The translations under genes were made by a program, and so were the position numbers. Of a stretch of 64,000 nt of DNA, positions 29,816 to 50,416 are shown one piece after another; position 1 is the first letter of the stretch, and every line of letters starts with the position of its first letter. The DNA is from a virus (Duplodnaviria; Caudoviricetes). The stretch spans positions 25,581-89,580 of the IMG/VR virus record IMGVR_UViG_3300028832_000118. One strand, given 5' to 3'. A model generated the notes under the pieces. The model worked only from the letters and a program-made list of their open reading frames with translations. It made no database searches and had not been told where the DNA came from.

Positions 29816-29889
29816 AATTAAAGTTTTTTTTATGAATGACTTTTTTTCTATAAATAAAAAAACCTTGATAACAAAAATTACCAATGTTT

Positions 29890-30245
29890 CCCATTTTTTA
29901 GGATGAAAAATGAATGCTTCGACTTTATTCAGTAGTGTGCAACCCACCTTTCAGTCTCCGTTCAATATTTCAGAACTTTTCGATACGGATGCAGAAATCT
30001 GCTGGCCAACAGACAATCATAGCTGCATTGCATTCACACTTGTAACGGGTTCTTTATAATGGAGGATTTCCAACTCCAGAGGTCTCAATTGCACCGAGAC
30101 AAAAATAGGGGGGCTACGCCACCATCTACAATCGGTATCGGACAACCTCAAATTTTAACATTTTCTTTTTTTGATTATTCGATAGTGACGGGATACGCAC
30201 ACCCACATTGAAAGTCAGCAATAGCTAATTTAGGTTGTCGAAACA
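29890..30245 (-). ncRNA. Candidate structured ncRNA downstream of the tRNA (unidentified)
   Basis: No credible ORF; helices GACAACCT-AAATT/AATTTGAGGTTGTC, GTCTC/GAGAC, GGAG/CTCC, GCAG/CTGC, TCCGT/ACGGA, GGC-GTA-GCC. Confidence 0.4.
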
Positions 30246-30271
30246 AACTTTTTCATTTCTATTGTGACTTG

Positions 30272-30364
30272 TGCTCCTTGTAAGGCTCGAACTTACGACT
30301 TACTGATTCCTACCACACCATATTACTATGAGTCAGTTACTCTAACCGACTGAGTTAAAGGAGC
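30272..30364 (-). tRNA. tRNA-Ile2/Met (CAT) with a 19-nt insertion in the anticodon loop (30308-30326); CCA not encoded
   Basis: GCTCCTT/AAGGAGC acceptor, ACTC/GAGT D arm, ACTGA/TCAGT anticodon stem, GTAAG-TTCGAGC-CTTAC T arm; removing 19 nt restores the CTCATAA loop; not initiator type. Confidence 0.9.
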
Positions 30365-30368
30365 ATTA

Positions 30369-30482
30369 GAGGGTGCTGCATGTCTTTATCTTTGCAGCAA
30401 GCTGTCCTGGATTCATTACACTCTTTTAAGAGTGGGGAGTTTTACGACCTCAACCCAAACGCTACCTGGATTCATTACCCTC
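30369..30482 (-). ncRNA. Candidate multi-hairpin RNA immediately 5' of the tRNA
   Basis: Closing helix GAGGGT/ACCCTC; hairpins CACTCT-TAAA-AGAGTG, GCTGCA/TGCAGC, GGG..GAG/CTC.CCC; two copies of GTAATGAATCCAGG. Confidence 0.5.
30406..30478. repeat. 14-bp direct repeat (30406-30419 and 30465-30478)
   Basis: CCTGGATTCATTAC occurs twice on the plus strand. Confidence 0.9.
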
Positions 30483-30535
30483 AAATTTTATCATTGACTA
30501 ATCTTTAATCATCATTTCAAAGAACTAACACCTTT

Positions 30536-48190: not shown

Positions 48191-48451
48191 TTACACGTTC
48201 ATTATTAAATTCCCCTGCTCGGATAATTCAACCAACTTCTTTTCACTCGGTTTAAGATAACAAAAAATAATTTTTTTACCATTGAAAACCTTTCGCCAAT
48301 TTGCGCAAAGCGTTTTGAACTTTTCCGAAAAGTAAATATCATAGTCATCAATCGCAATAAACCAGCATTCTCCCTCTTTATAAGAAAATGTAATAATTCC
48401 CTTATAAATCTTTTCAAGAGCTTGTAAAACGGCTAAAATGCGACTTCTCAT
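48191..48451 (-). CDS. Hypothetical protein
   Basis: 86 aa downstream of the RNR gene. Confidence 0.55.
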   Translation of the reverse strand: MRSRILAVLQALEKIYKGIITFSYKEGECWFIAIDDYDIYFSEKFKTLCANWRKVFNGKKIIFCYLKPSEKKLVELSEQGNLIMNV

Positions 48452-48457
48452 ACCAAA

Positions 48458-50416
48458 CTATATTACTTCACAGCTTCCACCGCTGCAACCTATCGCCACT
48501 AAATCGGTGCTGCTGATTATTCTGCCATCTAATATCTTTGCAAAATCCACTTCATTATTCTCTATGAATTTCAAAATGCTGTTAAACTTTTTCTCCATCT
48601 TTTCATCCGCTATGCGCTGAAATGGAGGATGGGGATAAATTTGGTCGCCAAGTTTAGGCAGCAAGCTAACCCCCGTGAAAATATGGTCGTTCATATATAG
48701 CACCGCTGCAACCGCTTCCCACTCGTTATCAGCAACCTCTACAGTAACAGATACGTTATTATTAACACCCCTAAAATTAACTCCCTTATTCACCCAATAG
48801 TGCTTAACCATGCTAACAAATTTCAAATGTTCTATCGCATTTATATCATCCTTACGCACAACACCATCCTTGCAAATAATCGGGAATATCATAACAGCTT
48901 CATCATCGCTAACGTCATCCACCATTGGGGTATCGTGAAGGACTTTATATTCAGGTGATGTCTTTTTAATCCTTACCCTTCTAAAATATCGGTAATCGTG
49001 AGCAGGATGAATGCCTGAGCAGGACAACCCAAGTATGGCGCTGGCATTGCCGCTCGGTTTGATAGTGGTACAAGCACTGCTAAATTTTATATTGAAAATA
49101 TTAGCAAACTTACGATTGGTGTCTAATACTTTCAAAGCTCCATATTTCAAAACTTCAGGCTTCATCAAATCCCTATTAGCAAAAAGCCCCGTAATAGACA
49201 CCCCAATCGCTCTATCTCTCTCAGCTATCTTTTTAGACACGGGTGATAAGTATTTGAAATCGCTATAAAGTGACTGCACAGTGGCAATAAATGCAGCACT
49301 TGCACAACAGCGGTGGAATTCATTTTCATCCTTTATTTTCTCAGCATTTATTTCCACTAAATTGCAAAAAGCAAAACCAGTTTCATTGCTAAACCTTGGA
49401 TGCAATACTATTTCACCGCACGGATTTACAATATATTCATACGATGGCACATTTACAAATCCAGGCTCTCCAAATTGTCGAATGACTGAAATCTTTTCCC
49501 TATACTCTTCATAGCTCATTCTATCTTCATCACTCGTCAATATGCTATTATTAGCCATAGTTCTCTGCGGATTATCAACCCACCAATTACCAGTCTTACA
49601 GCGCAACATATCTTCATCATCTTTATCAAATAACGCTATCATTGCACTCCTACGGACACCGCCTGAAACAACAGCCATAGCAATATGACACAAAATATCG
49701 TGAATTTCAATACTCTTTAACTTTCTGCCTTCAGCACCAAAAAATATTTTCTTTATATTTTCATGCGCCTTAATCAAGCCATTTGGGCCAGGGGCTGCAA
49801 ACTTTCCATCAATCAACTCCCCCTCTTTTCTAACATCTCTGAAATCTATTTCAACCCCGTTCCCTTTATATAGATTTTCAATCAACACCCTTATACTCTT
49901 TGCCCATCCTTCAATACTATCTTCAACCCTATATTTCGCAACATCGTTTTCAGGGGATTGGTGCAAAACTACTGGCAGCTTTTCAATATACTCTCTATGC
50001 AAAGAGTAACCGACACCGCAACCGCAAAGAAGCAAATACATAATTTCATCAAACGCTGAAATCCTATCAATAAACGTACCACAGCAGTTGTAAATTTTCG
50101 TTTCGTGCTTCAAAATTCCGCTTGTCTTAACGGGTGAGGCAAATTGCCGTGAACGCTGGGATGAAAGTATTTTCTTTTCACGCTCTAACATTTCGCAAAA
50201 TCTCAACTCATCTACAACCTCCTGATTGTTTAATAAATTCAAACTTTCCAGCTTCTTCTCGTGCATCGCATAAATGCGCCTCACTGTATCGCTCCAACTC
50301 TCTAATGTACCATCTTCTTTCTTTTGCGCATACTTCGACAAAAATACATATTCTGAAAGTAAATCTAAACCATCCATATCTACCTCCGTTTTATTTTCCA
50401 GTATGTCCAAAACCAC
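48458..50416 (-). CDS. nrdJ: Class II (adenosylcobalamin-dependent) ribonucleotide reductase, monomeric RTPR type
   Basis: YNCC, GCGVGYS, GGVRRSA, NPCGEI (thiyl Cys), TIKPSG, C-terminal CSGGSC. Confidence 0.9.
   Translation of the reverse strand: MVLDILENKTEVDMDGLDLLSEYVFLSKYAQKKEDGTLESWSDTVRRIYAMHEKKLESLNLLNNQEVVDELRFCEMLEREKKILSSQRSRQFASPVKTSGILKHETKIYNCCGTFIDRISAFDEIMYLLLCGCGVGYSLHREYIEKLPVVLHQSPENDVAKYRVEDSIEGWAKSIRVLIENLYKGNGVEIDFRDVRKEGELIDGKFAAPGPNGLIKAHENIKKIFFGAEGRKLKSIEIHDILCHIAMAVVSGGVRRSAMIALFDKDDEDMLRCKTGNWWVDNPQRTMANNSILTSDEDRMSYEEYREKISVIRQFGEPGFVNVPSYEYIVNPCGEIVLHPRFSNETGFAFCNLVEINAEKIKDENEFHRCCASAAFIATVQSLYSDFKYLSPVSKKIAERDRAIGVSITGLFANRDLMKPEVLKYGALKVLDTNRKFANIFNIKFSSACTTIKPSGNASAILGLSCSGIHPAHDYRYFRRVRIKKTSPEYKVLHDTPMVDDVSDDEAVMIFPIICKDGVVRKDDINAIEHLKFVSMVKHYWVNKGVNFRGVNNNVSVTVEVADNEWEAVAAVLYMNDHIFTGVSLLPKLGDQIYPHPPFQRIADEKMEKKFNSILKFIENNEVDFAKILDGRIISSTDLVAIGCSGGSCEVI

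Follow-up and report, generated by a model that had tools for sequence, protein, structure and literature searches.

The only tRNA gene of this phage genome, a tRNA(CAU), carries 19 extra nucleotides inside its anticodon loop, and we give roughly even chances to the explanation that they are an intron stump or the filler of a nuclease repair, disabling a tRNA-Ile2-like gene. The initial annotation had proposed a novel phage splicing or activation system, with a tRNA pseudogene or an integration scar as the contrary outcome, and it is this pseudogene or scar reading that fits the results better. The window, i.e. the whole 64,000-nt stretch of DNA analysed here, covers the right-hand part (64 kb) of an IMG/VR record of 89,580 bp, with an estimated completeness of 91% and all genes on the minus strand.

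The tRNA(CAU) gene, probably of the tRNA-Ile2 type, lies at 30272..30364 on the minus strand and measures 93 nt with its insert. A search of the whole window with the full Rfam model gave an RF00005 match of 59.1 bits (gathering threshold 29), whose alignment spans model positions 1-71, with an insert state of 21 nt within the anticodon loop. ARAGORN labelled the same gene 'tRNA-???'. It is the sole tRNA of the 89,580-bp record and also the sole RNA family found there by Rfam. Read on the minus strand, all stems pair completely (acceptor 7/7, D 4/4, anticodon 5/5, T 5/5), and U8, A14, G18G19, G53-C61 and the UUCGA T-loop are all kept. The cloverleaf is strongly backed by covariation: in an alignment of eight tRNA sequences, 95.7% of the cells are paired and 10 of the 21 pairs have changed on both sides, against 23-41% of cells paired in slid controls of the same alignment. 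As read from the sequence, the 5′ part of the tRNA (positions 1-36, comprising the acceptor 5′ strand, the D arm, the anticodon stem 5′ strand and CUCAU) occupies 30328..30364 and the 3′ part (positions 37-73) occupies 30272..30308, both on the minus strand. The two strands of the anticodon stem are separated by 26 nt, namely CUCAU, the 19 nt of the insert and AA, and removing the 19 nt restores the canonical CUCAUAA loop. This bears out two earlier statements, that the cloverleaf is otherwise perfect and that excision would yield a normal CTCATAA loop.

The insert corresponds to 30309..30327 (minus strand) if placed between tRNA positions 36 and 37, or to 30308-30326 if placed at 37/38. The two placements, both given in the initial annotation, are equivalent because of an A-repeat. 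The insert is preceded by U and ends in G, with the boundaries CUCAU/A...GG/AA, and it contains a GUG able to pair with the CAU of the 5′ exon. The CAUA-GUAA-UAUG hairpin described earlier is present in the minimum-energy fold; as a whole, the anticodon arm with its insert folds no better than shuffled sequences (z = -0.77). The insert was found to be neither a palindrome nor a local or genomic duplication, and with no tRNA duplicate in the flanks, its origin from a tRNA fragment, a local duplication or a palindrome was rejected. At 48449-48467 (minus strand), a stretch spanning the stop codon of the ribonucleotide reductase gene and the start codon of the next ORF matches the insert at 16 of 19 positions; about 0.01 such matches are expected per shuffle, and this one is probably due to chance.

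The record being a metagenome assembly, an assembly or sequencing artefact has to be considered, but a clean 19-nt insertion in a single loop is atypical of assemblers and the locus has the same length elsewhere. In two other assemblies, the 70-aa and 81-aa ORFs stand exactly 603 nt apart, as they do here, and in a third the helicase is separated from the 246-aa gene by the same 1803 nt. The contigs concerned, taken from an ENA assembly and from two Logan runs, carry identical flanking proteins and were compared by length alone. Since exact spacing recurs in three other assemblies, an error is highly improbable, and the insert allele is an established genotype rather than a rare mutant.

The host is best identified, from sequence comparisons, as a Bacteroidota bacterium. 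The replicative polymerase of the phage belongs to the bacterial DnaE type, with PHP, DNA_pol3_alpha, finger and HHH_6 domains, and its nearest cultured relatives, at 31-35% identity, come from Cellulophaga, Chryseobacterium, Tenacibaculum and Bacteroides phages; blastn against cultured phages gave no useful match. When prokaryotic genomes, one per species, were scanned with an anticodon-arm pattern permitting up to 30 extra loop bases, 74 matched, 73 of them labelled Bacteroidota (among them Myroides, Ekhidna, Cyclobacteriaceae, Spirosoma, Fibrella and Chryseobacterium) and one Balneolaceae. Without its insert, the window tRNA is identical to a Bacteroidota tRNA over positions 8-48 except for one D-loop base, and all differences in the acceptor and T stems are fully compensated. 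This combination of a near-identical core with compensated stem changes argues for a long-resident, host-derived phage tRNA and for a bacterial host. The DnaE polymerase, the kinship with Bacteroidota phages and the tRNA core one nucleotide away together uphold the bacterial host assumed at the outset, and they rule out an archaeal or eukaryotic virus, in which an intron at 37/38 would be ordinary.

Regarding its identity, the tRNA(CAU) is probably an AUA-reading, lysidine-dependent tRNA-Ile2. The acceptor-stem determinants of TilS, C4:G69 together with C5:G68 in E. coli, were tested in E. coli and Burkholderia (PMC11947777). Here, C4:G69 shows no variation and C5:G68 occurs in 6 of 7 sequences, although determinants established in E. 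coli and Burkholderia may not fit Bacteroidota. We lean towards tRNA-Ile2 because C4:G69 is invariant and because AUA is frequent in the phage, where it makes up 37% of the Ile codons. At this frequency, a working tRNA-Ile2 should be valuable to the phage.

Among the phage and cellular homologues found, the insert is a singleton. The closest relative is a sister phage on the Logan contig L048, with a 98% identical helicase, which bears in the same slot an uninterrupted tRNA(CAU) of 74 nt (70.8 bits) sharing the GCUCC acceptor start of the window tRNA. More distantly, 34 relatives were recovered at 55-59% helicase identity, of which 29 lack any tRNA and, of the five tRNA-bearing ones, three have an uninterrupted tRNA(CAU). 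In relatives of this phage group (L017, L033, L038, L044 and L046), ARAGORN also called long 'tmRNA*' genes of about 370-470 nt, which mostly overlap a tRNA-Glu and are likely to be false calls of permuted tmRNAs. Protein searches with the flanking genes against clustered proteins returned one close relative only. In cellular genomes, the matching tRNAs of the 74 species all have an ordinary 7-nt loop, even though the pattern permitted 30 extra bases, and in the eight-sequence alignment the insert is confined to the window copy. Stricter tRNA patterns recovered no interrupted relative from IMG/VR, and a broad tRNA(CAT) pattern yielded 119 loci there, none of them a relative; 87 of the pattern matches proved to be ordinary tRNAs followed by chance by a GTTCRA. 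The survey of homologous tRNAs suggested in the initial annotation has thus revealed no conservation, as no other phage or cellular homologue carries the insert.

The 43 matches obtained in JGI metagenomes with a pattern also used on IMG/VR were rejected as relatives, all of them belonging to one GC-rich archaeal tRNA-Met family with bulge-helix-bulge (BHB) introns. In these sediment and groundwater contigs (L173-L215), the tRNA-Met(CAU) introns fall into a few length classes between 21 and 40 nt, and the 40-nt class looks as if an internal hairpin had been added to the 26-nt one.

Group I introns at the same junction were found in Bacteroidota genomes. Run on a sample of 151 of them, the group I model gave matches in 14. 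In one of these genomes, G157 (L292:1046-1793), a tRNA(CAU) of the same family is interrupted after U36 by an intron of about 674 nt with a terminal G and with an HNH endonuclease ORF of about 155 aa near its 5′ end. In its default mode, ARAGORN misses this tRNA gene entirely. BLAST of the G157 core against 401 genomes revealed a second intron at the same junction in G410 (L322:543-889, minus strand), of about 300 nt and without ORF, in a tRNA whose anticodon stem, CUGA/UCAG, is that of the window tRNA. This tRNA(CAU) intron is therefore carried by 2 of about 400 sampled Bacteroidota genomes. The site corresponds to the '5Ug' site, named together with the U(-1) and the terminal G by Williams (2020, doi 10.1101/2020.01.27.920355), and the two Bacteroidota introns located at exactly 36/37 of this tRNA family are new here. 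The 19 nt thus occupy the very point at which mobile group I introns insert by homing into this tRNA. In the initial annotation the boundaries had been read as group-I-like, and this reading is strengthened, as both introns lie at 36/37 with U before and G last.

Two routes could have led from such an intron or its nuclease to the present allele. In the first, a group I intron would have lost its core, leaving 19 nt; the insert indeed keeps the boundary marks of an intron (U before, G at the end, internal GUG) and none of the catalytic core. In the second, the repair of a nuclease cut would have left 19 nt, making the site resistant to recutting. MAFFT aligned the 19 nt with the 3′ tail of the introns, with GT.TGG.AG common to the insert and G157, and a faint resemblance was also seen to an AATAAT...GGTG stretch near the intron internal guide sequence. 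These likenesses to the intron termini are too weak to prove descent. No full-length intron with ends matching the insert was found, and the G157 HNH protein has no relatives in IMG/VR.

Alternatively, an accessory tRNA might have been inactivated by a chance insertion with no relation to introns or homing nucleases, an explanation that we regard as improbable. It agrees with the singleton status of the insert, for which there is no homologue, and with the 29 of 34 related records that do without any tRNA. In addition, insertions at two of the eight junctions in the loop would look alike, which leaves the position by itself without significance. However, a random event leaves the exact homing junction, the U(-1) and the terminal G unexplained together, and the insert duplicates neither nearby nor genomic sequence.

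The possibility that the 19 nt form a true mini-intron, removed either by an unknown endonuclease with an RtcB-type ligase of the host or by a trans-acting group I ribozyme, was considered in the light of the available enzymes. In favor of it, the loop is exactly restored once the 19 nt are taken out, the body of the tRNA has remained intact, the boundary rules of group I introns are obeyed with an internal GUG pairing with CAU, the allele is stable across assemblies, and AUA codons are frequent. Of five candidate host genomes, three encode RtcB, and the non-ribozyme tRNA introns of the Lak megaphages provide a precedent (PMC6784885). Nevertheless, a six-frame search of the whole phage detected no RtcB, EndA, Rnl1 or Rnl2-type ligase, which answers in the negative the earlier suggestion to look for ligase and endonuclease genes. 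Among the Pfam families listed for 59 phage proteins (in one of the two lists, the best 25 of 40 families), none was a splicing domain and only replication and nucleotide-metabolism functions were represented. EndA (PF01974) was likewise absent, at E<=0.01, from five candidate Bacteroidota hosts carrying the matching tRNA. At E<=1, sub-threshold PF01974 matches appear in Bacteroides thetaiotaomicron and Thermotoga maritima; they are gone at E<=0.01.

The RNA-based version fares no better. Besides the tRNA, no Rfam family, ribozymes included, was detected in the whole genome at E<=0.1, RF00028 gave no match around the tRNA at E<=1, and the phage contains none of the group I core motifs that the two real introns supplied. 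A trans-acting ribozyme in the flanks was rejected, given this lack of an Rfam match and of core motifs and a trailer no more structured than shuffled sequences (z = -0.56). The idea of a ribozyme in trans is weakened further by the rarity of the intron, carried by only 2 of about 400 sampled Bacteroidota genomes.

As for protein-based splicing, the initial annotation had pointed to a C32:G pair and two of the four central BHB pairs. Both were found as described, but the protein-spliced likeness that they were meant to convey did not hold: a random 19-mer forms two of the four pairs about half the time, whereas the 43 archaeal tRNA-Met introns used as controls form three or four, and the BHB fit of the insert is thus at chance level. 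The lack of a second copy, hence of any conservation or covariation, also weighs against a mini-intron, as does its size, far below the 79-93 nt of the Lak introns, and its shape, which is not tRNA-like. Overall, a mini-intron seems unlikely, and what was first proposed, a decoy or a novel system of splicing or activation, is unsupported by any ligase, endonuclease, ribozyme, BHB fit or conservation. The specific claim of a working 19-nt intron, which would be smaller than any other known from a bacterial virus, processed by a host endonuclease and RtcB or by a ribozyme in trans, is also unlikely.

The tRNA lies in a non-coding variable cassette of 716 bp (29820..30535, minus strand). The flanks of this cassette share 94-97% DNA identity with those of the sister contig L048, and the cassette itself is not alignable with its counterpart of 934 bp (L048:8256-9189), which holds the uninterrupted tRNA(CAU). 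No credible ORF was found in the 716 bp. In a relative at 77% identity (L049/L050), a GH108 lysozyme gene occupies the cassette slot. The slot therefore seems to behave as a swappable accessory locus, with tRNA(CAU) probably exchanged as a cassette.

A 17-nt direct repeat, AATGWTAAAATTTGAGG, occurs as exactly two perfect copies in the window, both within the cassette. The upstream copy (30479..30495, minus strand), which includes a TAnnTTTG-like box, and the downstream copy (30146..30162, minus strand), about 110 nt past the tRNA 3′ end, bracket the leader, the tRNA and about 110 nt of trailer. They may represent a pair of Bacteroidota-type promoters or else mark the two ends of a mobile unit; the upstream one is a possible promoter of the tRNA. 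Two copies of a 14-nt motif were noticed within the 115-nt leader, where GAG(T/G)GTAATGAATCCAGG occurs at 30406-30423 and 30465-30482.

This arrangement raised a different explanation, in which a tRNA-shaped RNA would fulfil a non-decoding task, either as an RNase P/Z handle releasing the leader or the trailer, or as a sponge or decoy. The acceptor, T and D arms, which are the parts seen by processing enzymes, are perfect, the 716 bp are non-coding and the gene lies between two promoter-like 17-nt repeats. The leader, with its two motif copies, folds marginally better than shuffled sequences (z = -1.97), but the trailer does not, the flanks gave no Rfam match and the motif pair has no match in IMG/VR; the structure of the tRNA flanks is not convincing. 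Moreover, a nuclease decoy should imitate the natural 7-nt loop rather than bury it, and the exact CUCAU...AA flanks of the insert would be left unexplained. We consider a non-decoding RNA doubtful.

Our preferred explanation, the disabling insertion of an intron stump or repair filler, can be summarized as a sequence of putative events. A genuine, host-derived Bacteroidota tRNA(CAU) would have resided in the swappable non-coding cassette of this phage of about 90 kb, and only the present lineage would have gained 19 bp at position 36/37 of the anticodon loop, by one of the two routes above. The transcript would be expected to fold into a normal tRNA body and to be trimmed at its ends, but the gene would be non-decoding because a 26-nt anticodon loop cannot decode. 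The disabled allele would be recent and would persist by hitch-hiking.

Several observations argue against a disabled gene. The tRNA body is flawless and continues to match that of the host in its D arm, anticodon arm and variable loop. Decay would be expected in a gene dead for long, so either the lesion is recent or the RNA is still under selection. Furthermore, the insertion of 19 nt without a visible template is an unusual spontaneous mutation, which speaks against a scar. The intact body, the stable allele and the expected value of a tRNA-Ile2 keep both a mini-intron and a non-decoding role in consideration, each as an unlikely alternative.

If the scar reading is true, the locus displays what remains after a mobile intron or a nuclease has passed through a phage tRNA gene, and genes of this kind ought to be left out of counts of working tRNAs, a conclusion of value for annotation that is not in itself surprising. 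If the insert is a working intron, bacteria or phages possess a way of splicing tRNA without an intron-encoded catalyst.

Compared with known systems, the insert is closest in position to the Azoarcus-type '5Ug' group I introns, which interrupt the same tRNA family at the same junction (after U36 and before A37), with the same U(-1) and last G, and with which it shares the internal GUG pairing with the CAU of the 5′ exon. It differs from group I introns by its length, 19 nt instead of about 200-700 nt, and by the lack of a P3-P9 core, of an RF00028 signal and of an endonuclease gene; a 19-nt insert cannot self-splice.

The targets of homing endonucleases, whether free-standing or encoded in an intron, offer a second parallel. 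T4 SegB is an example of a homing endonuclease targeting phage tRNA genes, and a tRNA gene in a polymorphic phage locus is common to both situations. A lesion at the homing junction would block recognition by the nuclease. Unlike in these systems, the cassette and its surroundings contain no endonuclease gene, and the parallel is a tentative one.

Archaeal and eukaryal tRNA introns at 37/38 are spliced by proteins, from a bulge-helix-bulge (a 4-bp helix between two bulges of 3 nt each), by EndA/Sen together with RtcB/Trl1. They resemble the insert by their position, short length and C32:G(-3) pair. The differences lie in the insert's two of four central pairs, in the bacterial host and in the lack of EndA in the phage and in the five candidate hosts.

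Finally, the Lak megaphages of Prevotella carry 'enigmatic' tRNA introns of 79-93 nt with no known splicing route (Devoto et al. 2019, PMC6784885), and our literature search on short non-ribozyme tRNA inserts in phages found nothing besides them. The Lak introns are identical across cohorts and recur in several tRNAs, with T-arm-like sequence, whereas the present insert is unique, has no tRNA-like fold and interrupts the sole tRNA of its genome. Like the insert, they occur in Bacteroidota phages, adjoin the anticodon and have no Rfam match; were the insert spliced, it would join the Lak-type introns as evidence for protein-based or trans-ribozyme tRNA splicing in bacteria.
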